DNA of 64,000 bases from Blasia pusilla. Its lineage: Eukaryota. Location of the stretch: positions 6,820,001 to 6,884,000 of the forward strand of contig CM114271.1 of assembly GCA_050084515.1 (NCBI GenBank), given 5' to 3'. How positions within the stretch are numbered: the stretch's first letter is position 1; each line of letters begins with the position of its first letter. The position numbers and the translations under genes are program-made. This document shows, piece by piece, positions 3,001 to 45,968 of this stretch. The notes under the pieces were generated by a model. It saw only the letters and a list, made by a program, of their open reading frames with translations, was not told the origin of the DNA and ran no database searches.

Positions 3001-3666
3001 CATATGCTATAGCAGGTGTGAGTTGGCATAGCGATAATGTGCATGTAAAATTTCAGATTATATCTTTAGCATTAAGACTTTAGATATAGTACAATGGTTT
3101 CTCCATGCCCTTTTTTGGATGAAAGACAAGTAGTGACAAGAGGGTATGTAGCAGTTGTCAATCATGTAGTCTACTAGCGGTAGGAAGGAGGCATTCATAT
3201 TTGGTGTTAGTCATGGATACATAATAGAACTGTCAATGCTAGTGTAATGTACACCATTTATTCAACAATAAATCAACCTTATCGTATATAAATTACTCAT
3301 TGTAGTTGACCAAATGACTTCAATATGTTATTTATGTTACTTGCATAAGTCTTTCTTCATATTACATGCACGCCACCACAAATAATGTGTCAGACGTGGA
3401 TAAGATTGTAAAATGATTCGTCTGATTCATTCTTTAGTACTCATTCGAGTCATTCCTACTGATTTAGCTAAGTCGTTCTTTATGATTTGGACAAGTTATT
3501 CTTTATGACTTGGCTAAGCCATTCTTTATGAATGATGTAGTCATAAAAAATAACCACAAAGTAATCGTATGTAGTCACTAAGATGAGTAAAACATATGAG
3601 ACTAAAATTTGACTACACTTGGGTTTAAATAACTACTTTTATGACTGAGAGTAGTTTTTAGTATTG
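1..3666 (+). mobile_element. Probable decayed CACTA/EnSpm-like DNA transposon, 3' part
   Basis: Stop-riddled coding-like fragments at 1-2900. These are followed by short direct and inverted subterminal repeats (TTCTTTATGA x3 at ~23-bp period, 3471-3533; AGTCATAAA/TTTATGACT), ending in TTTTTAGTATTG, which resembles a degenerate ...TAGTG CACTA terminus. No diagnostic transposase motif was read. Confidence 0.3.
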
Positions 3667-3759: not shown

Positions 3760-3970
3760 GTAGCTATGTCCCTTTATAGCCTAAGGCTAGTCTCAAGACA
3801 CGTGTGTCGCTTATCTAGCATTAGTCCCGCACTCTATTCAGCCGCCTTTTCTAGTCTTGTAACTAGCTATTCTAGGTTCCAAATTTTTTGGGTCACATCA
3901 AGGTCTTTCCTCCTTGGACTCGTGATCATGACTCACTTATCGAGTTCCTGCTAGCATGTGCACCGTAGAC
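3760..3970 (+). repeat. Dispersed LTR-like repeat family (block P)
   Basis: Homologous by eye to the inverted copy at 4433-4612, which continues at 8262 after a nested insertion, and to copies at ~47340-47600 and ~51600-51930. Shared motifs include GCTATGCCCCTTTCTCA.CTAAGGCTAG and CAAGGTCTTTCCTCCTTGGAC..GATCATGACTCACTT. Confidence 0.6.
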
Positions 3971-23208: not shown

Positions 23209-26168
23209 TTATACACTCGGCTTCTTTCCTATGTCTGGGATTGACACCTGCCAAACCCCACTCGATATTTTAGTCAATGAGCAAGGGGACGCCTCATGTA
23301 GTCGAGGCAGCTTCTCCATCGCCGTTTCTCCCTCACTGTGAAGCTAACACAAACAAACATAACCAACATAAACTGTAAGCAGCATTACACACTGAAATGT
23401 CTGCAGCAGATCTGACTTGAAATGAACACTGCCATCAGACCCCCCAGTGGCAGTAAAAAGAGCGATTGCCTGGTTATGTCTTTGGAAGTTGATCTTTTGC
23501 CACACTTCATTTCACAACCTTAAGATTTTTGAGAATACGACAGCAGAAAACATACATACAGGCTTCTGAGCAGAGAGAGAATAGCAAAGCAACCTTGTCA
23601 ACAGCCTCGTAAAAATGAATCGAAGCAGATGCTGACCCCTCTTCATGCGAAGGCATCTGTTTCCAAGCATCCACCACCCCTTGTGAAGCACTGCATGATC
23701 CCTGTCCAGTGATCCCAACTAATCAGTCATGCTGCAATTCAGGATTTCCACTGCACCTCCTCCAAAATTCATACAAAAGCAGCACCAGAGCTCCCAGCAC
23801 AAGCCTAAGATGAATAAATTCATGATTTACTCTCGTGTAGTGCAGGGTAAGTTAGTGTGATGTTGAAGTAATACAGTTGAGATTACCCAGAACCAGTTAC
23901 CTGAGCCACAATGCTGTAAGCTGAAGACTGCAGCACTCCGTAGTCTGCCAATTGCTTCACTGATTCTGTAATCATGAGAATGCAGATTCAATCTCCAGGA
24001 AAATGAAAGCTCCGTATATTGCACCTCTCCACGCAATGATTGGGTTCAAACAAGCAACTCTCTGCAGAACCAACCTACTTGCGAATGAAAATGTTGGATC
24101 TTCCAGAGGGCACCGAAAAAAGTTTATACATACTTAAAAAAGTCGCTCGCAATTGAGGATCAGTTCGACAACCTTCCATGACTTTTTGCATCAAAAAATT
24201 TCGCTGCTCCTCACTGATAACTAAACGTTTTTTTTCCTGCTTCTGCCCATCATTAGCATCTACTTCCTGCATCGTACATTCACAAGTAAGAAATGGCAAC
24301 TAGAGCTCAGAAACACCTACCAGCATCTTTGGATTGAGAGAAATGAAAAAGGGAGAAAGCATCAGGTCTCAAAAGCTAAGCAGCCTCGGTATGAACTTGT
24401 GGGACGACAATCCAGTCAAGGTGACTCACCACCTGAACTTATTAAGAAATTAATTACACCAAAGCAATAAAGGCACCACATGTGTGACCTTCATCCTTCC
24501 AATCAGAGCATATTGCTTCCACTTGCAAGACTGTAAAACTAAAGAAACTATAGAACCTCACAAACATCGCCTCTGCATGGGTTAGTGCAAACATTCTAAT
24601 GGGGATTCTGGACTTGACTCTACATATCTACTCCACGTCCTCCACGGGCCACCAGCGTTGCTGTAAAGATTGCACACACGGGCTTCACTACACCTAATCC
24701 CAACACATTGCCGCACACAGTCATAGGGACTGTTTCCAGTGTTGTCAAGACAAAGCAAGCAAGCAAACAAACAAGTCACAAAAAAGTGAACTAAGCAAAA
24801 GGTGAACAAAACCTGAAGCAGATGTGATTGAAGCCCCCAAGTCTGGATCTTCTTGCTCACTCCATTTTGAAGCATTTTCAGTCTTCTCTTTGTCTGACTC
24901 CGTGATTGCTCTGGACGCACTATTGTTCCACTGTCCTGTCGCGGCACTCCATGCAGCGGCGGTTTGCCCGCAGCCACTCCATTCTCCTGCGTGGGCAGTG
25001 GAATGACGAGTCCGGGTCTTGCGTCAGCTCCATCTTGTGTGCTGTATGGGGGGATAAGCCAGGGCACGGGAGGCCGGCTCGAGGGTGAGGCAGGCGCCGG
25101 AGCAGGGGGAATGTGTTGATTAAACGGGAACTGACGGACGATGAGAGGAGAGGTGCAGTTGGCAGGAGCAGAACCAGAACCCGAAGCTGGAACTGGAACT
25201 GGAACTGGAACTGGAACTGGAGCTGGAGTAGGAGTAGGAGTGCGTTGAATCGGTGTAAACGGTGGTCTGTAGAGAAGCCCATTTGACAGAGCTGGATTAA
25301 TACCAGGGCCACGAGAGAAGCCTCTCAGGGCTTTCCGAGCGAGCGCGCAGGGAGGGAGAGGCGGCTTGCTTCCTGGCGGACGAGGAGGGCGGGGAGGTTT
25401 GGCTGCTGGGTGGAAAGGTCTCTTCACAGTTGGAGCAGAAGTGGCGGAAGGAGGAGTCGAAACTACGGGTTCGCTCCGCTGTACCGCAGGAGAAAGAGAG
25501 TCCTGCTCGACACGCTCTGTGGATGGCAAAGGTTGCGCAACAATGGTGCTTGAAACAGGCACCACTTGAATGGGCGCATCTGAAGCCACTCGTGTAGGCC
25601 ACTGATGAACAACACTACGGACATTGCCAGGGGCGGGAGGACTGTTTGATAGGCTCGTAGGCTGCTCAGGCAGATCGACTGTCCTAGAGGCTGGAGGGAG
25701 AGACACCAGCACGGGAAGCAACTGAGTAGCATCCACCGCAGCGGTAGATGGGCTCAGGGAGGTACTTGGCAGCAGGCGGAAGGGGTGATAGGTTGGGAAC
25801 AAATCTGCTGAAGTTTGAGGTAGTGGCTGCAAGCCATTGGGCGGCGCTTGAGGAATCTGGGCAAAAGGGGGTAAAGAGGGAAGTCGTTGCACGAGAGGCT
25901 TGGGCACCAGAGTGCGAAATTTTACAGGTGGCTGACGGACGCGGAGGGATTTTCTCGGTGCGGATGGCCTCGGCATCCCAGAAGAATTATCGCAGCTGGA
26001 AACACTTACAGCCGGAATTGCAGGCTTGCCCCTAGCTCTTGATTTCCACTTCACCTTGGTCACGAGGCTCCCTGACCCTTCAACGCTCTCGTTCTCAAGT
26101 GCTCGCTCGACAGGAATCCTATCGCCGGTTGAGTCGGCATTAGACGGACAATCGTCTTCTGCGTCCAT
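23209..26168 (-). CDS. Uncharacterised Pro/Ser-rich protein (~556 aa); predicted exons 24813-26168, 24079-24266, 23209-23335
   Basis: 452-codon GC-rich first exon, CAG|GT donor at 24812, in-phase TGCAG|GAA acceptor at 24267, and a phase-2 AA|GTAGGT donor to CACAG|T with a 41-codon open last exon. An alternative stop lies at 24075 if intron 2 is retained. No recognisable domain. Confidence 0.7.
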
Positions 26169-27373
26169 AGCTGAATTCTCGGTCCCTTTGATAGTTTGTC
26201 ACACTATTCCCTATCTTCCCGGTTGTTAAAACTCCTCGGCCAGGGTTCGGCACTCAGTCCTCAACTCCTCGCAGCTCCCCAATTCCAGAAGATGAATGCC
26301 TCGTCTCTGCCTCCGAATACCTCAGCCGCTCTCCTCTTGCGAAAAACTCAATGACTGCAGTAGGCTGTTTGCATCAGAGTCGCTTTCCTCTTCGGTAAAT
26401 TCCATGCCCAGCTTCTCTCTCTTCCCCTCTTGCACAAATAATATTTCCCACTCTCTACATACACAGCAGAAGCACAAACAGCACCCCCACCATCACAGAA
26501 TTTTCTGAGCTCCTACATTCATTCACCCTATGAATGAATGCAATTGCTCCTCACCATCACACCAACCCTAGCTCCACTCCAATCCTCCTCTTCCTACCTC
26601 CTCGTTCAAATCCCGCAGTCTTCCGCCTTCGCCGACATCTGTCACCGCAAGCTGCAATACTACCAACCGCAAAACCATTCAAAGCAAAAATATTCACACG
26701 CCTGATCCGTGGCGCTTCGATTCGCAACTCCTCCGCTATCCCTCACCTCCCAAGCCCCATCTCTGTGTAGTCGCCCCGACCCAACGCTCCTCTCTCCGAA
26801 CCTCGAAACCGCAAATCGCATGTCCGAGCCAAACTCAATCCCAGGTCCGCCGACCGACCTCCCACCCCGTCAAACCACCACCAACCGCTGGTCCTCTCCT
26901 CCTTCCAGTCGAACGCACTTCATCCCATTCAATTCTGCCCTCCATTCCGCGACCTCGACACCCTCACCTCCCCTCATATATCCAACGAACGATCCAGTGC
27001 ACACAATTTTCCTTGACAAATTCGGCATGAGACTCCTACCGCCACACTCCTTCGAAGCACTCGTCCCTCTCCCTCTCTTCCTGGTGGGGATTTCACATCT
27101 GCGGTGCTGGCACGCTTGAGATTGCGTGGCGTGCTCTCCAAAGCGCACCACCTACACGTGGCTGAACTTTCGAGCTGGCTCTCGCCACCTGTCCGTCTCC
27201 GCGGGCCATATGGGCCGCGTGCATACCCAACGATCGCGAATGGAAGTGAAGGTACATTCGTGGCACGCTCATTCACTCCGCCTTCACTCGATCCATCGCA
27301 TCCACACCGCAGGTGGGAAATTCCCGAAAATTGAATTTCTTAGATTTACTTCCATTTCCGAAATAGTCACGTA

Positions 27374-27913
27374 AAAAAAAAAAAAACGAAGATGCACTTC
27401 GATAAAAACGAGTGATGGAAAACCCATCGGAAGTACAAAAGAGGGGGACTCAAAGATTCAAAACCTGAAGGCCACAACAGGACCAGAAAAGGAAGAAGGG
27501 GGCATTCCCCCCCTAACCATTTAAACTCACCAACAAAGCAGAGACTATATCAGCAACAACAAGAGAGCTATGACTACTACTAAGTGGGCCTCTAGCGCCG
27601 GCGTCTCCCACAGCCTGAGCCCGCCGCAAAATCCCATTAGTCTGGGCACGCTGCAACGCTATGGAGACCCGCTGCCTACAATACAGAATCGCAGTAGCTA
27701 AGGACAACCCATTTCTCGAGTGGAGATGATGGGCGCAGTCCGTAAGGAACGAGTCAAACCTCTCCCCCATAGCCCCATACATCAAGGAAGAGGTTGGATG
27801 CAGCACCGGGACTTCCCGGGAGGTCACCCATCCCAGTACTATTCCGGCCCAAGGGCGCTTAACTGCAGAGTTCTGATGGGATCTGGTGTAATAGCCCTGG
27901 TATGACCGCATCA
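27374..27913 (-). mobile_element. 5S rRNA-headed retroposon (SINE3-like or chimeric retrocopy) with CRE-derived 3' body and poly(T) tail
   Basis: 5S head at 27795-27913, RLE-element C-terminal coding remnant at 27513-27780, 3'UTR, then a ~13-14-nt T tail on the element strand. A direct repeat TCACGTA at 27367-27373 and 27911-27917 is a putative TSD. Confidence 0.8.
27795..27913 (-). rRNA. 5S: 5S rRNA-derived sequence, essentially full length (head of the retroposon, not an array unit)
   Basis: The reverse strand reads (T)GATGCGGTCATACCAGGGCTATTACACCAGATCCCATCAGAACTCTGCAGTTAAGCGCCCTTGGGCCGGAATAGTACTGGGATGGGTGACCTCCCGGGAAGTCCCGGTGCTGCATCCA. Box A, IE and box C are intact. There is no T-run terminator directly after it. 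Confidence 0.95.
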
Positions 27914-29819
27914 CGTAGTCAACATGCTCCGCATAGTTTCTTTTACTCATTTAATACTTTTCAACCGGCCACGTAGTCACATACGACTCTTTTCTACCTT
28001 TTAAAATGGTGTACTTTGCACCTTTTACCTTGTATAAAAAAATTATATTTTAGTCCAATGCTCTTAAGGACTGCTTTTTCAATATGTTGTAGTTGGTGTC
28101 GAATTTTACATTGTAAAATAAAATGATCTTATATCAAAAGAGACGTCATTAGAATACGCACACGTGTCAAACCTTCCTCGAAATTACTTTATTAAAAAAG
28201 TAGTGGCAATATCTTCACCTTTGAGACGGGCCTCCGAACCAATTTTAATTTGAGATCTGCCTATTATTTTCCATTTCCTAGACTGTCATGCCTATAGGAT
28301 TGAGGGTATCCACTTCTATGATTTTTTTTCTTAACCGTACATAAAAGGTTAACCAATTTTATTTTTTTATTTTTTTGGGGTCAAAAGCCAGGGAAGACAT
28401 ACACATTGAAGGATAGAGGAGCGGAACAATCGATAGGGAGAGAGGGGACAAAACGCTTCGTCCCTCCCACATTTTTCACTTTCCCTTCTTCTCTCGAGAG
28501 GCTAAGATATTAGGGTTAGAATGGAGTGATCCCTCAATCTACATACACAACCATCATTGTATAACATATCTCATTATCATATACACACATACATATACTA
28601 GTATAAAATATATCATCATCATATAAAGAAATCACATAATCAGATGGGAAACGAATCACTTTTTGAATGAAATTGAGCCAAATCCATTGTCAACGCGAGG
28701 GAATCAAAGTTCAATGCATATCATCCACATCCGTCCCTAGTCTATTCTTGAAGTCCCACTTATGGAAAAATGAGTCTTTCCAAACCTTCCCTTGGGATAT
28801 ACCATCTTTATATGCACATATATCACCTCAACCTACTTAGTAGATTTCTAACAAATTAAGAATTGTGAGAAGATTTTAAGGGTGATCGATGGAGAAAGAT
28901 TGCCAAGGGAGGCTAACATATCACTCCTACCCTCTCCATACCTATCTAGACTCTTAACCTCTCTATCAAGGCATATCATGATACTACAAATATTGTGATA
29001 ATTGTTGTGCACATACATATCATTACACAAAATACTTCATTATCACATACACATAACATACACCAAAAAATTACCACATAACACATGACATGAATATGTA
29101 CATTATCACATAAACAACCGTGGAATCTTCTCCTGGATGGTGGTAGGGTCCTTGCAACCCCAATGGTCAATCGTCATGTAGAAAGTAATATGCATCTTTT
29201 TGGTGCTAAGATCAAGAGAGGAGTGCTCACTTCCCCCATGGTTAGTGACGTATCTTCGATCCATGTCACTCTAACTCAACAATGATCATATAGAATGCAC
29301 TATGTATATTTCGGACATAACCATCATCACTAAAGAATCTCATCCAAGGGTGGCGTCAAATATGCCATTATGCCACCTTCGAGATCAACCATCACAAACA
29401 AATATAGTTGAAGCTCCTTGTTGATCCACACATCATGCACCTCGACCAATTTCAATCATCACCAACATCGGTTCTATTATATAATCCACGTTAGGAAGGT
29501 GACATGACATATAGCTATGTGCATAGTTCTTCCACATCATACCATCATGGCCAAAATCAAGACCCTTTATGGGAAAATCGTTCGCCATCTTTGAAAAGTG
29601 AAACCTGCAACACCCAAAGTCTATGATATTCTCTACTATATGAACAAAAATATTAATGATCAAACCTAAAAATCCCTTAATGATATCTACCTCTTCAAAG
29701 TATTGCATAACTGAACCTATCATGATTTTGAGAAATAGCTAGGTTCTCAAATATTATGGGCATTTCTCACCAAAAAAGCGATGGCTTTGATTCTACAAAC
29801 CAACTTGGTGTGTGTGAGT

Positions 29820-32800: not shown

Positions 32801-35800
32801 TGGTTGGTTTGGAGACAAAGAGTGGATTCCAATATAAATTTCAATACCTCTTAAAGAGAAAAATATGGAAGACTTATGTGTTATGAGATAAACATGTATG
32901 ATGCCAATCTACATGGTAAATCTTGGAGATTCATAGTGTGATGACTTTGGGACATGGTTGGATATTTCCATCTTTACGGGAATCCTTAAAACTTCCAAGA
33001 GAAGAGCTCCATGAGATTTTGAAACAATCTTTTACAAAATTCTTACATTTTTATTATTATAAGTAGGGACAAGTAAAAGGGCTCTCCACTTGGTGCATAA
33101 CTAAGTATGGATTTCCTCTTTCCACTATTTAATACTATAAATATGTCTCATAGAGTGGGATTCATGCTAATATGAATGATCTCATTCCTACTAGTTGGGG
33201 AAGTGGAAGGAGAGAAGTTTGCAAAATGAAAATGGAGGAGGACTATGGAGGAGGAGATGGAGGGACATTTACAATTTTGCTTGTAACTATTTTCCAATGT
33301 GCTCCAATTTTTTCAATCGAAGGCCCAACGTGTTCATTTTCTCAAGCTTGAACTTTGGGGTCTTCTATTTTCCACTTAAGATGGAATTTTCCAAAGTTCT
33401 TGGGATCTATGGACCTCCTTCTCTCCTAAATATGCTAATAGATTCCTAAATAAAATTTCACACATAGCGCTCTTCTTAAAGTGTGATACCGGATTCCCAT
33501 CACTTTAAGGGATTCCTCTTGCTTTTCTCAATCTTTTGATACAGTGTGGGCACAACATTTCCAACTCATTCCCTCATAGTAGTTATCGGTAGGTAGCTCA
33601 CTTTCTGATCACATCCTTTTTTTTGGTGTTTCTAATTTCTTCATAACTTTCTCATCGAGTATCGACTTTGGGCATGTTTGGTCTTGTTTAGATCGTCTTG
33701 AAGAGCTCATTCTTTTCATACCAATAAGTTTTTTTTTATTCCTTGTTTGTAGGCGTCAATTTTGTATATGGGTTTTCTTTAGATCAATTCCTCTCAAACG
33801 TCTTCCTTGCTCTTTCAACTCTTTACCTTACTATTTTGCTCCTACATACGTTTGCTATCTCCTTAAGGACATTAAAGATTCATATTCTTGAGCCACTTAC
33901 TTCGATACCATATATGTCACTTTACTCTTTCAATTGCTTTTTATGTTTCTTAAAGTAACTTTCAATCATAAACTCATCGTGGCCTAATCTTATTCTCTCC
34001 ATCTAAATATCTTTTGGATGGATTCCACTACTTTTGTTATGGTCGTTACCCTCATGCTTTCTCAAACTCACCTTTCATATGTCTTCTCTTCTCTTTGATG
34101 GCTTTGCCTAACTTTGCTTCTATGGCATCAGAGATGGAGTTGGATTTATATCCATCTACTTGCTTCTTTGGTTTTGCACGCCCTCCTACAATCATAACCT
34201 CTCTCCTTCGTTTCCCTCCTTATCGTAGATCTCACCATTTTCCTCTAGATACTAATACACCCATTACACTCTCTACATTTCTTCAAGATTCTCCTCTTCT
34301 CCCCTCTTCATCTCTTCCTATTGAGCCTAATCTTGATCAATTATTACAAAATCCTACTACTTTGCTATCCTCACATATCTCAACTCTATCCTTGCTTCTA
34401 ACTCCCATCTATTCGACCCTTATCTCCCCTCTTCCTCCTCCTCCTCCGGATCCTTCTCCAACCTACTTACCCCCTCTTCGTTCGTACGAAGAGGGGGATC
34501 AAAGGTTGGAGAAGGTGGTGATGCGTCAACTTTTATGGAAGACTATACAATGGATCTTGACTTGGAGCTTGACTTGGAGGTTTTCACAAGGGCTATTCTT
34601 AATACTCCTCATTTATCTGCAAACAGGCTATCAGGGGATGGTTTTTTAGCACCTCCACCATTGCTTTATCTGGGTAGATTCAGCAAGTGGCTTTGCCTCT
34701 CTATATAACATGTGTGCACATATTACGGCACGTCATCTCCCATTCTCTATCTCAAGGCTCTTAGGGGTTTATCGTGTGTTGGCTATAGATAAGCCTCCTT
34801 CAAGTGTCCTCCCTTTGCTAGTGGAGAGGATTTATACCGCTTGGTTAGTCGATCCCTATGCTTACAATTTTATCCTCATTTTAGTGCCCACTTATTTCTC
34901 ATTAATTTAGAGTGGCAACCCTTGGTGGTTGTGAGGCTATGGTGCATGGGATTCGCTCCACTCTTGATATTCATCCAAAGTGGATGGCAATTCAAGTCGA
35001 TGTGGCTAACGTCTTTAATTATTATCTCGTGCGGCCATCTTTGAGGAGTTATGCTATGCATGAGGATAACTTGTGAGTCTCATTCTATTTGTCTGATCCT
35101 TCTATATATGCCTATAATACGCCCTTTATCTATTCTCATCATGCTACTTCCGGGGAATATAGTATTCTCCAATCAACTTGTGGCCCACGTCAAGGTGACC
35201 CCATGGGTGGCCCACTCTTTACAATTGCATATTTTTGTGCCCTTCAAACATCACTCCAAGAATTTCTATCTTGTCTTTTCCTTTTTATTGTTGATGATAT
35301 TCACATTATAGGTCCTCTTTCTAAAGTGGTTCCCACTTATACCCATTTTGTGGAGCAACTCTCTTTCTTAAACCTTTAACTCCAACCTAGTAAATGTGGG
35401 GTATGGTCTCCTTCATACCTTCCCTCAACATTCACCATGCCTACTTCTGATTTTTTCATCTGCATTGAAAGGGTTAGGGTTCTTGGGGTCCTAATTGGCT
35501 TCATCGACTATGTCTCGGAGTTGTTGGATGAGGCCCTTTTGAAAGATGTAGAATTCAAATAGCTTCATTTGTTACCTCATCTAGGGGATCCCCAAGTGGC
35601 TTATGGGATTCTCTCCAAATGTTTTCTACGACGTCCTTCCTACCTTCTTCGCACTTGTACTCCCACTTCAACGTTCTTACATCAATTGGCCTCTTTTGAT
35701 GCTTTTATCTTGGCAACTTTTGATCAACTTCTTGGCCTAAATACATTTCAGGGAGAGGATGATGTCTTGGCTTTAGGACAAGCTATCTTGCCTATTTCTT

Positions 35801-36269
35801 TTGGAGGGGTAGGGCTTATCTCCACAGTCGCATCTGCTCTAACAGCTTTTTTGGGGAGTTGGGTGTTGGTACCGCCGATTATGGCTTCAAGGTTTCTCCA
35901 AGGAGATACACCTATCTTGATTGATCATTTCGCCCATGTAGAGGAGGGGGACATATTAGTTCAACAAAAATTGAGATTTGCTCGAGTTTTTTTTCCTCTC
36001 GCTATACAAGCAATTTTACCCCCTTTCAGTCAATTGATTACTGAAGGGCTTGATCGACTTCAAGAGCATATCTCAGAGAATTTGCACCAAATCAACTTTT
36101 CCAGGATTCTCTCTAAGGCATCTTGTGATGCTCATTGAGCTCTTATTCATTCATGTGCGCGTACAGGGGCGGGGGCATGGCTTACTGCAAATCCTCTTAT
36201 TCTTCTATTTTTCTTCCTCAAAGTATATTCTCGATAACTTTGTGGTTACGCCTTGAACTTCCTCATCCT

Positions 36270-39216
36270 TGTCACATCTGAGTAACCGATAGGCCGAGAT
36301 CTATCGTGGATAGGGCGTAGGAGCCAGCGGACTATCTTGAGTGTAACTTTGTCCCATGGTGTCAGATGAGGTTGAGGATAGGTCCATTGTGTCAGGAACG
36401 TCCTTTCTGACAACTTTCATGTTGAGGTCTTTCACAGCCGGGTGACTTGTTGACCAGGTCACCCGCCCCTGGTAACCTGTGTGCACAGGTTACCAAGGAG
36501 AGGGCTACTTTTAGGGGAAGACCCTTTTGGTTCTTCCCAACCCTATATAAGAGAGGAAGATGGCTTTCCTAAGCCATCTTTCTCATGTTGGGCCGTTGGA
36601 GCACCTCCCTTGTATGTGTGTGAGATAGGACTAGGGTGCTAGCGTCCGGATTCCTTGATAGCACAGGATGGACGAGGCTCGATATGTCGATGTAGATTGA
36701 GGAGTGGAGTTTTAGGCCGGGTGTGGCGTTTTTACTACTCTTTATTTTTACATGAGAAAGATGTCAGGGGGCTGGTGGGAATTCGTTGTTTTAAGGTAGG
36801 CAAGCGAGTTGCCTTGGTCGGGAGCCCGTGGAGACGTTGGTTGGGGTCGTATTTTTCATTTTTCTGTTCGAAAGGCCGTGGGCGGAAGCGCTGTCCATTT
36901 TTCTCAGATTTTGCTGGTGCGGATCGATGGGAGACAACAGTAGGGTGTAGCGCAGGTTGTGACGGTAGGTATAGCGTCGTCTAATAGCGGGAATGTCGGG
37001 ATTTAGTAGGAAGGAGAGTTAGGGCTTGCAGCCGTCGGGGGCGCTGACGGGGCGTTTAGGTCAGCGCGCACGGACGGGCGGATGGAGGACAGCGGGCGGA
37101 AATGGCGACGGCGCGCCTCCCCCGCGCATTTATTGCTCAGCCCAAAAGTTGGGGAGGCCCATAGGGGTGCGGGCCAGGCTCCCCTCCCCCGCTTCTCACA
37201 TTTACTACTCTTTTTCTTCCCCTTTGGACGTGGTTGCGCATGGGCAACGTGGTAGGATCGAACGTGGTTGGATGGAGACGTCGTTGAGAGTCTGGATGTG
37301 GTCGAGATCAGGTTCACGTGGTCGGATAGGGTATACGTGGTAGATGGGAGCCGACCATGGTGAGTCAAGTTACATGCCGCGTGTGGGGATGGACGGAGAG
37401 GTTTGCGCGACATGATGTTTTTGGGGCGTGACAGGGCGTTGCGAGAGTTGACGATGGAGGAGCAGTGCGCATGATGCCGACAGGTTGTCCGCATCTATTG
37501 ACGGGAGGATCGACGTGTTGGTCGAGGAGAGTGTTGTGTTGCGGAGGTTGTCATATCACGTGGAGGAATGCATGTTGACGGTGCAACAGATTGGAGGGCG
37601 TGATCACGTTACGCATTCGAGTCCCTTTTCCCGCACTTGTCATGTGTGATTGAGAGTGTTGGATATCGGGTAGTAGCTGGTGCTAGGTGGGTGCAGTGAT
37701 GGTGACGAGTGTAGATTCTTTTCATATGTAGCATGTTGGTGGATATATACCGGTTGCCGAGTAGGGGTCGCGTGTATACAGATTCTTTCAGGAGCAGATT
37801 GAGTACTTGGGACACACCATATACCCGAGTGGGTTAGGCGTTCAACAAACGAAGGTAGAGGCTATTGCGTAGATTCCACGCCCTACAGATGTGAGTCGAG
37901 TCCGAGCATTTCTTAGACTTGCGAACTTCTATCGACGGTATGTCAAGGGTTTTAGTGCGATCGCAAAGTCTTTGACCTTGTTGACGAGACTTGATCAGGT
38001 CTGGTTGTGGGGAGATAATCAGGAGCGAGCATTTCAGGAGCTCAAGGACAAGTTGACGTCCTCACCCATTTTACAGAGACCGGTTAGGGGTCGCCCATTC
38101 CAATTACATACGGATTGGAGCATGTTGGGTCTAGGAGCAGTGCTTACTCAGAGGGATGACGTGGAGAGGGAGTTGATGTGGCGCCACATCATCACGCTCG
38201 GACGGTGGATCCGAGCTTGGCAGTGGTACCTGCAGGCTTGAGGTGTATGTTGTGCGGATCTGCAAGGGGTGCAGCCACCATGTTGGTATATGATGGTTGT
38301 TCTCGATGGTGGCATGTGTCATGTCTGACCCCCCCTCTTGATGTGGTTCCCACGGGACGATGGATGTGTCCAAGATGTGTATAGGGTAGTAGGTCATGTT
38401 AGATAGATGTGATATTTTCTATCTGGAGTTGGGGGGATCCAATTGCTAGCTAGGGGGCGGTTGTGTGATCTCCATGTATATGTATGAGTTGATTTTTGTA
38501 CATGTGTGGATCGACCCGTGTGTGGGAAAGATTGGTATTGTGTGGTGTAGATATGGCCAGCGATGTATGTTGTGTAGCGATATGTATGCGCATGACAGCT
38601 GTCACATCTGAGTAGCCGATAGGCCGAGATCTATCGTGGATAGGGCGTAGGAGCCAACGGACTATCTTGAGTGTAACTTTGTCCCACGGTGTGGGATGAG
38701 GTTGAGGATAGGTCCATTGTGTCAGGAATGTCATTTCTGACAACTTTCATGTTGAGGTCTTTCATAGCCGGGTGACTTGTTGACTGAGTCACCCGCCTGG
38801 TAACTTTGTCTGTGCGAGTTATCAAGGAGAGGGCTATTTTTAGGGGAAGAGCCTTTTGGCTCTTCCCAACCCTATATAAGAGAGGAAGATGGCTTTCCTA
38901 AGCCATCTTTCTCATGTTGGGCCGTCGGAGCACATCCCTTGTATGTGTGTGAGATAGGACCATGGTGCTAGCGTCCGGATTCTTTGATAGCACAGGGTGG
39001 ACGAGGCTCGATATGTCGATGTAGATTGAGGAGTGGATTTGTAGGCCGGGTGTGCCATTTTAACTACTCTTTATTTTTGTTGTGTGATCTCCATGTATAT
39101 GTATGAGTTGAGTTTTGTATAGGTGTGGATCGACCCGTGTGTGGGGAAGATCGGTGTTGTGTGGTGTAGATGTGACCAGCGATGTATGTTGTGTAGCGAT
39201 ATGTATGCGCACGACA
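36270..39216 (+). mobile_element. Gypsy-type retroelement (RT/RNase H remnant + PHD finger) with split direct repeats A1-internal-B1-A2-B2
   Basis: A1 36270-36749, B1 38460-38597, GC, A2 38600-39078, B2 39079-39216. Ends are TGTCAC...GACA, with TSD TCCT (36266-36269 and 39217-39220). RT thumb/RNase H at 37891-38175 (FYRRYVKGFSAIA...FQLHTDWS...GLGAVLTQ) and PHD at 38178-38384. Confidence 0.9.
36541..36551 (+). promoter_or_regulatory. TATA box in repeat A of the split-repeat retroelement
   Basis: CCCTATATAAG is conserved in A2 (~38870) and, as CTCTATATAAG on the minus strand, in the copy at ~7980-7990. Confidence 0.55.
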
Positions 39217-40639
39217 TCCTTCTCTGTGTGTTAGATGTGTCTAATTGTGTATGCGGTGATCTTATTGATGAAAAGGGTATCCATATTCTTTGATGTGCAC
39301 ATGGTGGAGAACGAAAGTCCATTCATGATGCCATTAGAGAGGCAATAGCATCGGTGGCTCGTACTGCATGGTACACCGTCGGGCAAGATCAGCTCCATGT
39401 CCTACCTTCAACTACATATTCAACCTCTTGTCGGAGAGTTGACCTTCTTATGTCTCAAGGTGGATTCTTGACACTAGGTGATGCGGTGGTTGCTAATCCA
39501 ACACGTTTTGACTTGGTGTGTTTAACCGCACATACCAAAGGTTCGGCGGCCAAAGCAACAGCAAGAATCAAGGAGTTAGGTCATGTTGTGGGACATATGA
39601 GTGATGGATTTATTCTTTTTACAGGGGAAGTATTCGGTCATTTACATATGTCTTTTGATACTTTCCTGAAAACATGTGCTCACCACTCCCTCGAGAATCA
39701 TCACCTTGCCCCTTCATGTAGTCATTCTCTCTCTGTAGTTACTACTTATTTTTGGTAATGCATCTCAATGTCCTTACAACATGCACAAGCCTTGCCATTG
39801 ATACGTTGTGTGGAATTGATGATAATCGTCTAATCGTCTAACCAACCACTAGTGTTCTTGTCAAATTTGTTTCATGTTATCAGTCGTGTAACTCATTGAG
39901 TTGGTGTTTGTGTTGGCTAGTTGTCATTTTTCTTTTTGCATTCTATTATGCATCTTTTACTTCTCTTTGAGGTTTGTCATTATAATAAAATGGATGGTTT
40001 TACTAGTAAACTTCTTATGCATGCATGATATATAACTATCAATGTAATTTTTTTCATTTTTAGTGAATTATATTTTAAAAAATGAATATCCTATAACTGA
40101 TTTAAAAGTAAAGAGGTACATGGCCTTCTCAAAATAAAAAAAATTCATTCTTGGTAAGAACCCACTTTGAGGAAGTCATGCTTTGATAGTGTAGATGATT
40201 TTTGAATCCCTTCTTGTACTCTTGATAAATTATGAAGAGATGCTCATTTTTTCAAGTTTTGTATTCCTCTCCGATCTTAAAAGAGAAGTAGTTATGATTT
40301 ACTCAACAGATTTTGAGAGTCAGACATCAGGACAAATATCTTTTGGGCAGGTTAGGTGGGGTAACAAACAAAGTTAGGGCGGACAGAAACATCCATCCAT
40401 GATACGCTAGTGTACTACCAAAACAACATGCACATTTAAAAAAATAAAATCTATCTTCTTGGTCGAATTACAAATTTATGCAAATAAATAAAGTATGTAA
40501 GTATTTTCTCTTCTTACCATTAGAATTATTTGATGCCATTCTTACAAAGGGAAGCCTTGGTTTCACTTTTAGTGGTGGAAAATAAGTGGATGTTTAGTGG
40601 TCCATATAACAGGTCCATATCGTGTTCATTGGTCGTGAG

Positions 40640-43600
40640 AAAAGCGGTTGTTGCTATTTGTCCAACGAAAAACGTAATCTCTACAGCCCTGCCCTACCGA
40701 GATTCCCTCATTGACCGGTCCGTCAAACAGCGGGTCGCTGTGATTGGTTGGTGTGTAAGGACCGGTAAGGGCGTGGAAACGAACCGCTGGAATCTACTGC
40801 AGATCATTTTCTTTGCTTTTTCTTTCTTTGTTTCTCCTTGGGTTAAGGATCCTGGTTGGCCTTTTCTCCCCTGGAGAAGACCCGGACGTGCACGCGGTGT
40901 CCTCGAGTTCCGGGATAGACGGGCACCCTTTACGCCGACACCGACGGCGACTGTCTCATTGGCCGAAAAGTTTTAAAGTGTCCTGCCCTGATTCCTGAAG
41001 GCCGCAGGTTCCGGTACGGAGCAGACACTAACGCCACGCGTTGTAGCCAATGCAGCCCTCCCATATGGCTGTCATCCGGTGCGCTTTGCGTTACACAGTG
41101 ATATGCGGGAGGCATTTCATAATATTTCTACCAAATATCGAGAACGAGAAAGAACTGGTCTGGTTGGCTGGCGTTTCGAGCTATCTTAACCCGTAAAGGC
41201 CCGACTCCTTTTCTCAACGAGAAAACACGAAGTATCTTTGAACATCCAATGGGTTTCAGGCGGAGGAGATGAAGGGACATCTAAAAAATTTGCTTGTAAT
41301 TATTTCCATGGTGATTAATTTTTTCAATCTAAGACCGTTGATCTTACCAAGCTTGAACTTTGGGATCTTTTTATTTCCACTTCAGATTGAGTTTTCCAAA
41401 GTTCTTGGGATCTTTGGACTTCCTCCTCTCCTAAATGTGTTCATAAAGTCTTATACGCAATTTCACACATAGCGCTCTCCTTATAAAGTGATACTGGATT
41501 ACCATCACTTCAAGAGATTCCTCTTGCTTTTCTGAATCTTTTGATACGGACTGGATTTAACATTACGAACTCATTTCCTCATAATAGTCATTGGTGGATG
41601 GCTTACTTACTCCTCACATCCTCTTTTTTGGTGTTTCCAATTTCTTTCATAACTTTCTTCTAAAGTGTCGGTTTTTTACGTATTTGGGCTTGTTTCTATC
41701 GTCTTGACGAGCTCGTTCTTTTCATATCAAGTAAGTTTTCTAGTTTTTCTTTCTTCTCCGTAGGCGCCTATTATTGTGTACGGGTTTGTTTTAGGTCAAT
41801 TCCTCCGAAAAGTCTTCCTTGCTCTTTCAACTCTTTACCTTACTGTTTTGCCCCTACATACGTTTGCCATCTCCTTAAGGACAATAGAAATTTATATTCT
41901 TGAGCCACCTCTTCTGATACCATATAGATCACTTTTGCTTTTCAATTGCTTTTTATCATTTTCTTATAGTAATTTTCAATCATAAATTTTGTATTGCCTA
42001 ATCTTCTTCTCTCCATCTAAATTTCTTTTGGACGGATTCCACTACTTTTGTTTTTCTCGTTACCCTCATGCTTTCTCAAAACCACGTTTCATATGTCTTC
42101 CCTTGTCTTCAATGACTTGCCTACCTTTGCTTCTATGTCATCAGAGTTGGAGTTGGATTCTCCATCGACTCGCTTATCTGGTTTTACACGCCCTCCTACA
42201 ACCGTAACCTCTCCCCCTGGTTCACCTCCTCATCGTAGATCTTGCCATTTTCCTCCAAATGCTAATACATCCATTGCACTCGCTACATTTCTTCCGGATT
42301 CTCCTCTTCTCCCCTCTTTGTCTTGTCCTATTGAGCCTAATCTTGATCCAACATTACCGAATCCTGCTACTTTGCCAACTCCACATATCTCATCTATGCC
42401 CTTGCTTCCAACTCCCATCTATTCTACCCTTATCTCCCCTCTTCCTCCTCCTCCTTCCCCAACCTACTTACCCCCTCATCATCGTCCATCATCACATCTT
42501 GCACCTCCCACCTCCTCTCCTTGTAACCCTTCTACTTCTGCATTTGTACCAAAGGTTCGTTGCATACCTTGTGGTTAGGAGTTTGCTCCTAATGGAATCA
42601 AAAGACTTCAGAGGTATTGTCGATCCATGCATGGGCCTTCAATCCCTAACCCGATACCACCTTCTACTACACTCCCCACAACAACTGCTTCGACATGGTT
42701 AAGCCAAATTGATCTCCTTCGCTCTTTCCATCCAAGTCTTCCTCATCCTAGACTCTACACTCGTATTCCTATTGCTCTTCGCCCCATCACCCAACAAGCT
42801 TTTCTTTTCCCATTAAACAGATTAGCGCGTGATCCCATAGATATCAATGCTTGGTATCTCCTATTACTCTTCCCACAATGGGTTTTAGTCCTCCCTCCAA
42901 GGGGTGGTGCGACGGGTCATCGTGAAACCTCCACACGTATTCAACGCTTGATGTCTGGAGATTGGGAGAATCTTCAGAATGAGCATGTACTTCGAGCAGA
43001 GGCCTTAGCTGCGGCTTATCCCACTCAACATGCCAATCATGGGAGGCCTTCAATACAACAACGTCTTGGACGAAGTCTACTTTTGGGGCAGGCTGGTAAG
43101 TTTTCACGTGCAACTCGGTCATTGGGTCCTCTTTCTCCGGCGGTTCGAAGTGCAAAAATAGTGGCTTTCTTAGAAGCTCTTCACCCTCCTTCAAGTGGCG
43201 ATCCTCCACCTTTTGTGGAAGACTATGCAATGGACCTTGACTTGGAGCTTTTCATAAGGGCCTTTCTGCGTACTCCTCGCTTATCAGCAAGTGGGCTATC
43301 AGGGATGGTTTTTTAGCATCTCCGCGATTGCTTTATTGCGGCAGATTCAACAAGTGGCTTTGTCTCTCTATATAAGGTGTGTGCACTTATGGTGGAAAGT
43401 CGTCTCCCATTCTCTATCTCTAGGCTCTTAGGGGCTTGTCATTTTTTGGCTATGGATAAGCCTCCTTCATATATGCGCCCTTTGGCTATTGGAGAGGTTT
43501 TATATCGCTTGGTTAGTCGATACCTATGCTTGTAATTTAGTCCTCACTTATTTCCTCATCAATTTGGAGTGGCAACTCTTGGAGGTTGTGAGGTTGTGGT

Positions 43601-45735
43601 GCATGGGATTCGCTCCACTCTTTATATTCATCCAGATTGAGTAGCAAATCAAGTCGATGTGGTTAACACATTCAATTCAGTTTCTCGTGCGGCCATCTTT
43701 GAGGAGTTACGTCGTGCAGGAGAACAACTTGCAAGCCTCATTCCATTTGTTCGCTCCTTCTATGCCTATGATACGCCCATTATCTATTCTCATCATGCTA
43801 CTTCTGGGGAATATAGTATTCTACAATCGGCTTGTGCCACACGTCAAGGTGATCCCATGGGTGGCCCACTCTTTTCCATTTCTCATTTTTGTGCCCTTTG
43901 AGCATCAGCGCAAGTATTTCCATCTTGTCTTTTCCCTTCTATTATTGATGACACTCACATTATAAGTCCTCCTTCTGAAGTGGTTCCTGCTTATACCCAT
44001 ATTTGTGGAGCAACTCTCTTTCTTAAACCTTTAACTCCAACCTAGTAAATGTGGAGTATGGTCTCCTTCGTCCCTTCCCTCAACATTCACTGCACCTACT
44101 CCTGATTTTCCCATCTACATTGAAGGGGTTAGGGTTCTCGGGGTCCCAATTGACTTCATCGACTATGTCTCAAAGTTCTTGGATGAGGCCCTTTTGAAAG
44201 ACGTGGAATGGCTTCATTTGTTACCTCATCTAGGGGATCCCCAAGTAGCTTATGGGATTCTCTCCCAATATTTTCTACGACTTCCTTCCTACCTTCTTCA
44301 CATTTGTCCTCCCACTTCAAGGTTCTTACATCGGTTGGCCTCTTTTGACGCTTCTATCTTGGCAAGTTTTGGTCAACTTCTTGGCCCAAATACCTTTGAG
44401 GAAGAGGATGGTGTCTTGGCTTCACGACAAGCTATATTGCCTTTGTTTTTAGAGGGGTGGGACTGTCCTCCACAGTCGCATCTGCTCTCGCATCCTTTTT
44501 GGGGAGTTGGGCGTTGGTAGCACCGATTATGGCTTCAAGGCTTCTCCAAGGAGATACACTTATCTTGATGGATCATATTGCCCATGTAGAGGAGGGAGAC
44601 TTGTTATTTCAACAAAAATTGAGATCTACACAAGCTATTCTTCCTCTTGCTACACAAGCAATTCTACCCCCTTTCAGTCAATTGATTACGGAAGGGCTTG
44701 ATCGACTTCAAGAGCATATATCCGAGAATGTGCATCAAATCAACTTTTCCAACATTCTCTCTAAGGCATCCTCTAACGCTCATCGAGCTCGTCAGCGTTC
44801 ATGTGCGCGTACCGGAGCCGGGGCGTGGCTTATTGCAAATCCTCTTATTCTTCCATTTTGTCTTCCTTGAAGTATATTCTCGAAAGCATTGCGGTTACGT
44901 CTTGGACTTCCCCATCCTTCTGTGTTAGGTGTGCCAAATTGTGTATGCGAGGATCCCATTGATTCCAAGGGTATCCATATTCTCCGATGTGCACATGGTA
45001 GAGAACGAACGGCCACATATGATGTCATTAGAGAGGTGGTAGCATCGGTGGCTCGTAATGCAGGATACACCGTCAGGCAAGAGCAACTCCGTGTCCTACC
45101 TTCAACCACACAAGAAACCTCTCGTCGGAGAGTAGATCTTGTTCTGTCTCGAGGTGGATTGCGAACACTAGGTGATGCAGTGGTTGTTGATCCAACACCT
45201 TCTAACTTGGTGTGTCGAGCCGCACATACCAAAGGTTCGGCGGCCAAAGCAACAGCAAGAATCAAAGAGTTAGGTTATGTTGTGGGACATGTGAATGATG
45301 GATTTATTCCTTTTGCAGTGGAAGTATTCGGTCATTTACATGTATCTTTTGATAATTTCCTGAAAATATGTGCATACCACTCCCTCGAGAATCATCACCT
45401 TGCCCCTTCCCGTAGTCCTTCTCTCTCTGTAGTTACTACTTATTTTTGGCAATGCATCTCAATGGCCTTACAACGTGCACAAGCCTTGGCATTGATACGT
45501 CATGCGCATGTGGTGGGGGATCGCTCGCCTTGTCGTCCATTCACGTTTGAACAACCACTCGTGTTCTTGTCAGATTTTTTTCACGCTATCAATCGTGTAG
45601 CTCGTTGAGTCGGTTTTTGTGTTGGCTAGTTGCCATTTTCTTTTTGCATTCTTTTATGCATTTTTTGACTCCTTTTTTGAGATATTATTACCTTTCTTTT
45701 TCCTCTTTTGAGGTTTATTTTATAATAAAGTGGAT
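40640..45735 (+). mobile_element. CRE-like (RLE) non-LTR retrotransposon, copy 2; near full length, multiple stops/frameshifts (5' boundary approximate)
   Basis: One decayed long frame: hydrophobic N-terminus, Pro-rich linker, C2H2-like finger (CIPCG...RYCRSMH, ~42560-42632), RT (RQGDPMGGPLF...IIDDTHII), CCHC knuckle (CVCEDPIDSKGIHILRC) and RLE nuclease (RRRVDLV...GDAVVVDP...FAVEVFG), with a stop at 45608. Confidence 0.88.
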
Positions 45736-45968
45736 ATAACATCCAGCCCTCTCAACAAAATTCCCACCCTCTACTTTTTGGCCAAGAAGTTCAAGTGCTT
45801 ATTTGTGTAAATTTTCTTAGATCCAACTTGTAGTGGAGATTTGGTACCCGTGGAGATTATGGGGGTGTTTTTTGCTTAATTTGGGCCTTATTTGGATGTG
45901 TTCGGATATCATAATGTCCAATCATAATCATCAATTTTCAACCATTTCCAAAAATTCTCGTTGCGCCA

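Follow-up and report, generated by a model that had tools for sequence, protein, structure and literature searches.

A 5S rRNA copy joined to the 3′ end of a LINE in Blasia pusilla is very probably an independent chimeric retrocopy

The window analysed here is a stretch of 64,000 nucleotides (nt) of the Blasia pusilla genome (C1:6820001-6884000 of the 390-Mb assembly). Its minus strand carries a 548-nt chimera in which a copy of 5S ribosomal RNA (rRNA) is fused to the 3′ end of a long interspersed nuclear element (LINE) (Table 1). A sequence-only reading had put it forward as a candidate 5S-derived short interspersed nuclear element (SINE), with a template-switch chimera and a LINE family targeting the 3′ ends of 5S genes as other options. 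Rfam analysis revealed a single 5S in the window, with a match of 108.7 bits over the full 5S_rRNA model (27913-27795, minus strand), and the copy differs from the tandem 5S genes only by C>T at position 24. The near-perfect 5S with intact internal promoter of that reading was thus borne out. That reading can be refined in that the 11 nt 3′ of the 5S are the own trailer of the tandem array on C8, up to the first two terminator T. Native 5S spacer is missing both upstream and downstream of the copy.

The open frame after the 5S (27782-27513) reads MYGAMGERF...RQRVSIALQRAQ... and had been recognised as the C-terminus of an element with a restriction-like endonuclease (RLE). We agree; it resembles the other RLE-like frame of the window (44871-45608) with 33% identity over 88 amino acids (aa) and an E value of 3e-13; that the two belong to different families is also upheld, BLASTN of the partner LINE against the copy at 44871-45608 giving no match. 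The 3′ untranslated region (UTR), the T tail and the 7-bp direct repeat at both ends were found as described, the repeat having a chance of about 0.003 allowing for offsets. So were the internal T runs, which comprise T4 runs starting at 27631, 27490, 27463, 27440 and 27422 and a T5 run at 27408. The predicted fold of the whole element was nothing special (z -1.0).

Table 1. Parts of the chimeric insertion, in window coordinates (RNA polymerase III, Pol III; open reading frame, ORF)
Feature	Position	Strand	Basis or remark
Whole chimeric insertion with target-site duplication	27367..27917	-	Sequence and repeat comparison
Target-site duplication, 5′ copy, 7 bp	27911..27917	-	Last 4 bases are the first 4 of 5S (5′-junction microhomology)
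Full-length 5S rRNA copy, 120 nt	27795..27914	-	119/120 identical to tandem genes on C8; internal promoter region unchanged; without native upstream spacer
Trailer of the native 5S, cut after the second T of the Pol III terminator (3′ end of the precursor)	27784..27794	-	Blunt join to LINE, 0 shared bases
Last ~89 ORF codons of a young RLE-type (CRE-like) LINE, end of endonuclease domain	27513..27783	-	LINE position 3511 of ~3913 onward; 95.6% identical to full-length copy
LINE 3′ UTR with several T4-T5 runs	27387..27512	-	
T14 tail	27373..27386	-	Plain family copies also end T-rich on the sense strand
Target-site duplication, 3′ copy	27367..27373	-	

A search with the whole element gave 2948 candidates. 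Besides its own locus, all 39 further main matches among the best 40 start at query base 143, with 94-97% identity; this base lies directly after the 5S and its trailer. Upstream of the tail, 29 fetched copies have either more of the same LINE or unrelated flank. The full element was defined by two copies with the same 5′ start and 95% identity over 3.9 kb. The autonomous partner that had been predicted therefore exists: a 3.9-kb LINE with the same T-rich end, 95.6% identical to the tail. The native 5S spacer is unrelated to the tail beyond the terminator, so the tail is RLE-LINE sequence and a spacer origin was rejected. An exact 17-mer of the LINE 3′ UTR has 1058 matches genome-wide, which puts the family at 1058 copies at least. 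Plain copies are dispersed between unrelated flanks and 5′-truncated, with T-rich ends and short duplications (best candidates 4-17 bp); frameshifts occur in LINE copies of this assembly.

The partner LINE has reverse transcriptase (RT) followed by a zinc knuckle and a PD-(D/E)xK endonuclease in one ORF, the arrangement of RLE-type elements, and an N-terminal C2H2-like motif. Its conserved residues are C, C, H, C, H, D, D and K. RT-bearing homologues align along the element. A structure model of a 344-aa open piece reached a pLDDT of 94, and in Foldseek all seven PDB matches with E<=0.001 were R2 proteins. Given the R2-like fold and the RT-bearing homologues along the element, the partner is a young, dispersed retrotransposon of RLE type, belonging to those that lack long terminal repeats (non-LTR). 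Seven LINE fragments had no significant match in Pfam, and a PDB sequence search with a homologue gave no match. Neither the atlas nor two homologue searches yielded a clade name, and there was no named CRE, R2, NeSL or HERO sequence among the matches; the nearest named proteins were unnamed products of Klebsormidium and Closterium. From its motifs we provisionally take the partner to be CRE-like. One RNA run shows transcription of the LINE 3′ end, predominantly in sense orientation within the coding portion.

The junction between head and tail was found to be single-copy. A junction pattern with up to 30 nt allowed between the parts had one match in 390 Mb; no second head-plus-tail copy was found among the best 40 of 2948 candidates, and no two loci with one junction among the 37 scored out of 1417 candidates for a short-chimera query. 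The SINEBase description, in its available text, asks for a 5S head at least 60% identical over 60 nt, a length below 1 kb, and about 100 or more dispersed copies of common origin, built of the same modules (PMC3531059). The head (119/120 identity) and the length (548 nt) fall within these limits, and the 3′ end is common with the partner LINE, as in SINEs. However, the junction occurs once, and all nine chimeras with this LINE family differ in junction, the other 5S-headed copies joining the LINE elsewhere. The 5S-derived SINE family of the sequence-only reading was therefore rejected by the search which that reading had itself proposed.

According to the accessible part of Kojima's work, independent chimeras are told from a SINE by differing junctions and by headless LINE copies that far outnumber the chimeras (PMC4494074). 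Here the LINE has at least 1058 copies, and none of 68 copies sampled in genome order with a visible 5′ end had a 5S, 7SL, U6 or tRNA head (80 were fetched, and 12 of these extended beyond the stretch). Rfam detected no RNA family at 60 plain-copy loci, scanned in three sets of 20. For 60 of the 80 sampled loci, screening was with 5S, U6 and 7SL baits and ARAGORN only, and tRNA heads were sought only in the sample. Heads are thus rare among LINE copies, under about 4%, with 9 of at least 1058. In the same sample, 17 of the 80 copies start at LINE positions 3776-3793, at a G run, which may be a break or pause site or partly an alignment error; one 5S chimera joins at 3785. A truncation hot spot at the junction of the window copy, suggested by 3 of the 29 top matches, was rejected, as 0/80 copies of the unbiased sample start at 3510-3511. 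In several sampled copies, duplication and LINE are separated by 7-300 additional bases.

The main array of 5S genes is found on C8 (28.09-28.16 Mb), with units of ~340 bp. Its copies are 83-99% identical, and the indels between them recur at identical GC-rich spots, a pattern suggestive of systematic sequencing error in this assembly. Outside this array, 5S was found at 20 places, three with native spacer on both sides and 17 without. The three spacer-flanked loci (C4:14.19-14.20 Mb, C4:31.07 Mb and C8:28.53 Mb) were counted as genes; the two on C4 represent a second 5S gene type, with short tandem units and its own spacer and trailer. This type is evidently transcribed, because its trailer occurs in several chimeras. 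In 16 of the 17 spacer-less copies the 5S passes directly into a LINE fragment, always in sense orientation: nine on the partner family, four on its older relatives and three on an unrelated LINE. The remaining one, at C2:53537k (5S 1-41, then 18 nt, then 61 nt of LINE that seems to have a duplication of its own), was ambiguous and excluded from the count. The process thus recurs at other junctions, and the description of the window copy as a one-off chimera is right for its junction only.

The nine chimeras of the partner family join the LINE at positions 4, 2072, 2584, 3511 (the window copy), 3559, 3596, 3756, 3785 and 3846 of ~3913, and in eight of them the LINE fragment begins within about 15 nt of the 5S end. 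Most of the 16 heads are full-length and keep the genomic trailer; none of the nine same-family chimeras has 5S spacer upstream. Duplications of 5-11 bp, like those of plain copies, surround head and LINE together in six of the nine. Two heads end at the mature 5S end plus 11-13 A-rich bases and one has four extra bases; the six heads with the main trailer stop after 0-4 terminator T, none with spacer beyond. On this last ground, and on the start at the first bases of the gene, we consider that the heads derive from RNA. From what is known of Pol III termination, the 3′ end of the window head is presumably that of an unprocessed transcript. The six chimeras with 310 nt of shared LINE have a mean identity of 92.4% among themselves versus 94.3% to plain copies; the nearest rows of each are plain copies, and no variants are shared by chimeras only.

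More complex arrangements were also seen. At C22 (~399.6-403.8 kb), one 10-bp duplication surrounds a 5S with the second-type trailer, 168 nt, 11 nt and a full-length LINE; the 168 nt equal the single-copy locus C6:31471410-31471577, and the adjoining 11 nt also occur in the LINE 3′ UTR. The four loci on older relatives are two in which 5S heads related tails and two LINE-5S-LINE sandwiches (C5:23061k and C8:26246k), where 5S with a short trailer lies within the 3′ region of older LINE copies and the LINE resumes with a short overlap; they represent either a jump away from the LINE and a return to it, or a 5S retrocopy that inserted at this place. The unrelated LINE with 5S heads (C1:44016k, C1:25844k and C1:31464k) is ~4.3 kb long and ends at and accumulates in (TC)n repeats. 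Its RVT_1 match is below the family cut-off, and its motifs are presumably APE-like. One of its 5S heads has an internal inverted duplication.

Other Pol III RNAs were compared in the same way. Nine matches to signal recognition particle RNA (7SL) comprise six gene-like and three chimeric loci. The chimeras (C6:28.596 Mb, C5:25.523 Mb and C7:9.724 Mb) each have full-length 7SL, its gene trailer and a short run of T joined to a fragment of the LINE group, with clear duplications in two of the three; by their sequence they appear proto-SINE1-like. Only one of 30 fetched U6 loci (34 matches) was fused to a related LINE 3′ UTR. These Plant SRP and U6 matches, like the nearest named proteins of the LINE, point to a green plant as host. 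At eight of the 30, a degenerate U6-like piece was found in a dispersed repeat family with flanks shared on both sides, possibly a U6 analogue of Cassandra or a SINE.

These data show that 5S and 7SL precursors were repeatedly captured by LINEs in this genome, in combinations that vary in junction, head and LINE family, and the window copy is very probably one such independent chimeric retrocopy. This agrees with the template-switch-type chimera named as an option in the sequence-only reading. That such a retrocopy was made by a template jump of the RT is, taking class and mechanism together, the reading we favour as probable. The LINE protein would nick the target, prime on it and reverse-transcribe about 410 nt of the LINE RNA, beginning at the T-rich 3′ end. 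The RT would then pass, end to end, to the U-tail at the 3′ end of a 5S precursor not yet processed and copy it to the first base, and the end of the cDNA would be joined to the target via four matching bases, giving the 7-bp duplication. The R2 RT jumps end to end in this manner, and the partner protein is predicted to fold like R2.

The main alternative, which we hold to be rather unlikely, is that a cellular RNA ligase joined the 3′ end of the 5S precursor to a broken LINE RNA and that the fused RNA was then retrotransposed, as for U6/L1. A full-length sense head with a blunt join matches U6/L1 in the available accounts (PMC13174262, PMC6789731), and heads on two unrelated LINE types also speak for ligation. 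RtcB ligation requires a 2′,3′-cyclic phosphate according to the part of the source at hand (PMC6789731), and U6 carries one. One ground for inferring joining by RT rather than by prior ligation is that U6, in spite of this phosphate, is fused in only 1/30 loci versus 16/17 spacer-less 5S and 3/3 non-gene 7SL copies. A jump is further favoured by the variable precursor ends (U0-U4 or A-rich additions), by the 4-13 extra nt at three joins, and by the three-part insertion inside one duplication at C22 and the two sandwiches, each of which would need two ligations. In addition, no fusion read was listed: the 113 RNA reads listed as leaving the stretch at 27783 continue into LINE sequence, a weak point as it rests on 6% of one RNA run.

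Several observations weigh against a retrocopy made by template jumping. The joins are blunt, with no shared bases in 5/5 tested, and a full-length sense head with such a join is also the signature of U6/L1 chimeras, which in human cells are products of ligation. That two unrelated LINE types carry heads would suit a step independent of the element, and 5S abundance alone could explain the excess over U6. No enclosing duplication is clear in three of the nine same-family chimeras. An empty site was not seen, as the contigs of other samples (three DNA runs) neither bridge the junction nor cover the right flank. The 5S census relied on exact patterns of 17-21 nt and on searches scored for their best 40 candidates, and is a lower bound in which diverged heads are undercounted; it is also limited by many small assembly errors. 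The U6 and 7SL loci were compared with two LINE references only, so that fusions to other families could be missed.

Why 5S and 7SL are captured may tentatively be ascribed to the RT itself. The T-rich 3′ end of the LINE points to a preference for RNAs ending in oligo(U), so the RT of this non-targeted RLE LINE could capture nascent Pol III transcripts (5S, 7SL) in about one insertion per hundred; we regard this as possible rather than probable.

Very unlikely is a newborn SINE3 master, transcribed by Pol III and equipped with the LINE 3′ recognition end, whose offspring are too few, polymorphic or diverged for this assembly. The copy has the architecture of a SINE, with 548 nt, an intact internal promoter, a terminator cut to two T and a complete LINE 3′ end, and its partner LINE is young and transcribed; but one copy was found, and six T4-T5 runs, among them the T4 at 27631, lie ahead of the tail. 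Moreover, two upstream motifs common to both native 5S gene types are missing at the window copy, and such motifs have a role in plant 5S transcription. The private bases of the copy at 27546 and 27641 were found in 0/98 and 0/157 reads, respectively, of the same 6% of the RNA run, which came from another individual, possibly without the insertion, and from a library that was not made for Pol III RNA and may miss it. The window chimera is probably silent and inert.

We consider highly improbable two sequential insertions at one spot, capture during DNA repair, or an assembly error. The assembly has many small errors (array copies are 83-99% alike), no other sample bridges the junction, and C2:53537k does look sequential; however, the chance that a LINE on the same strand begins within 20 nt of any one site is ~7e-5 (assuming 2600 copies), compared with 16/17 observed, and the window copy has a single duplication around both parts and a head that ends inside the terminator. 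Insertion of a 5S-targeting LINE into a 5S gene, also suggested by the sequence-only reading, can practically be dismissed: the LINE starts within about 15 nt of the 5S end in 8/9 chimeras and most RLE clades are target-specific in the available text of PMC4640811, but spacer is missing upstream in 9/9 and downstream of this copy, one duplication encloses 5S and LINE, the LINE is in 0/29 array loci checked, and plain copies are dispersed with unrelated flanks.

Comparable chimeras are known from other organisms, here according to the accessible parts of the sources. The U6/LINE-1 chimeric pseudogenes of mammals arise by RNA ligation in human cells (PMC6789731). They share with the present copies a full-length Pol III RNA in sense orientation at the 5′ end of a variably truncated LINE, one duplication and independent copies (PMC13174262, PMC6789731). 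The Blasia chimeras differ in that their LINE is of RLE type and not L1, their heads are 5S and 7SL precursors with variable U0-U4 ends and rarely U6, the tail is T-rich and not poly(A), and their frequency is 9 in at least 1058 young copies. The 27 human 5S rRNA/LINE-1 chimeras likewise have 5S and LINE within one duplication, but are typically antisense and truncated at 5S positions 46 or 90 (PMC13174262), whereas here 16/16 are sense, mostly full-length and with the genomic trailer kept. WEIRD-MGL (MINE) of Magnaporthe grisea forms bi- and tripartite chimeras, and a three-part insertion in one duplication was read as a double template jump (PMC2104539). Abundant non-coding RNA on truncated LINEs and a three-part insertion in one duplication are common to both systems, although the head of the fungal element is a 1.1-kb RNA of unknown function and the head here is a Pol III precursor with internal promoter.

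With SINE3 (PMC4494074, PMC3531059, PMC10946416, in the parts available) the window copy shares the 5S head, the LINE-derived tail and a length below 700 bp, but it has no common junction, no amplification and no sign of transcription of its own. According to the available text of a 2024 review, plants are not known to have any 5S-derived SINE (PMC10946416), which our finding does not change. Cassandra TRIMs (miniature retrotransposons with terminal repeats), for which a SINE3-like insertion into an LTR was proposed as origin (PMC10886601, PMC10946416, available parts), also have 5S inside a plant retroelement. The window copy, unlike them, has no LTRs, non-LTR ends and a head nearly identical to cellular 5S. 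Assignment to Cassandra was rejected, with a single 5S in the window that is not within two LTRs, a T tail and a variable duplication. In the open literature searched, no LINE chimera with 5S or 7SL was found to be described from plants or for RLE elements, subscription papers, Repbase and supplements being outside its scope. New in detail are the heads, which are 5S and 7SL precursors, full-length and in sense, borne by an RLE LINE of a green plant.

SINE families are believed to arise from the joining of a Pol III RNA to the 3′ end of a LINE, a step that is rarely caught. Here this birth step is seen at least 16 times for 5S and three times for 7SL in one genome, with differing joins and no sign of spread. 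The birth of proto-SINEs is thus separated from their amplification, and the barrier between them can be tested on the upstream promoter motifs and the internal T runs. The copies also offer a natural series in which template jumping by an RLE-type enzyme can be distinguished from RNA ligation, and are at risk of being mis-annotated as SINE3 or as dispersed 5S genes. If the RT indeed captures RNAs by their oligo(U) ends, this plant genome would amount to a natural catalogue of how proto-SINE3 and proto-SINE1 are born, the barrier would be transcription of the new copy and not its formation, and an amplified 5S- or 7SL-headed lineage may exist in the clade.

Elsewhere in the window, two degenerate copies (73-90% alike) of another RLE-LINE family lie on the plus strand at ~33300-45750, one of them interrupted by pieces of LTR elements, with a T-rich end near 45630-45720. 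At the insertion itself, an open frame of 145 codons (27513-27950, minus strand) extends from the flank across the 5S and on, in frame, into the C-terminus of the LINE, probably by chance. A proline-rich frame of 538 codons (24582-26198), without Pfam match, starts on the same strand ~1.2 kb past the T tail, and the region upstream of this frame may hold the insertion, whose site has an ACGTG core.

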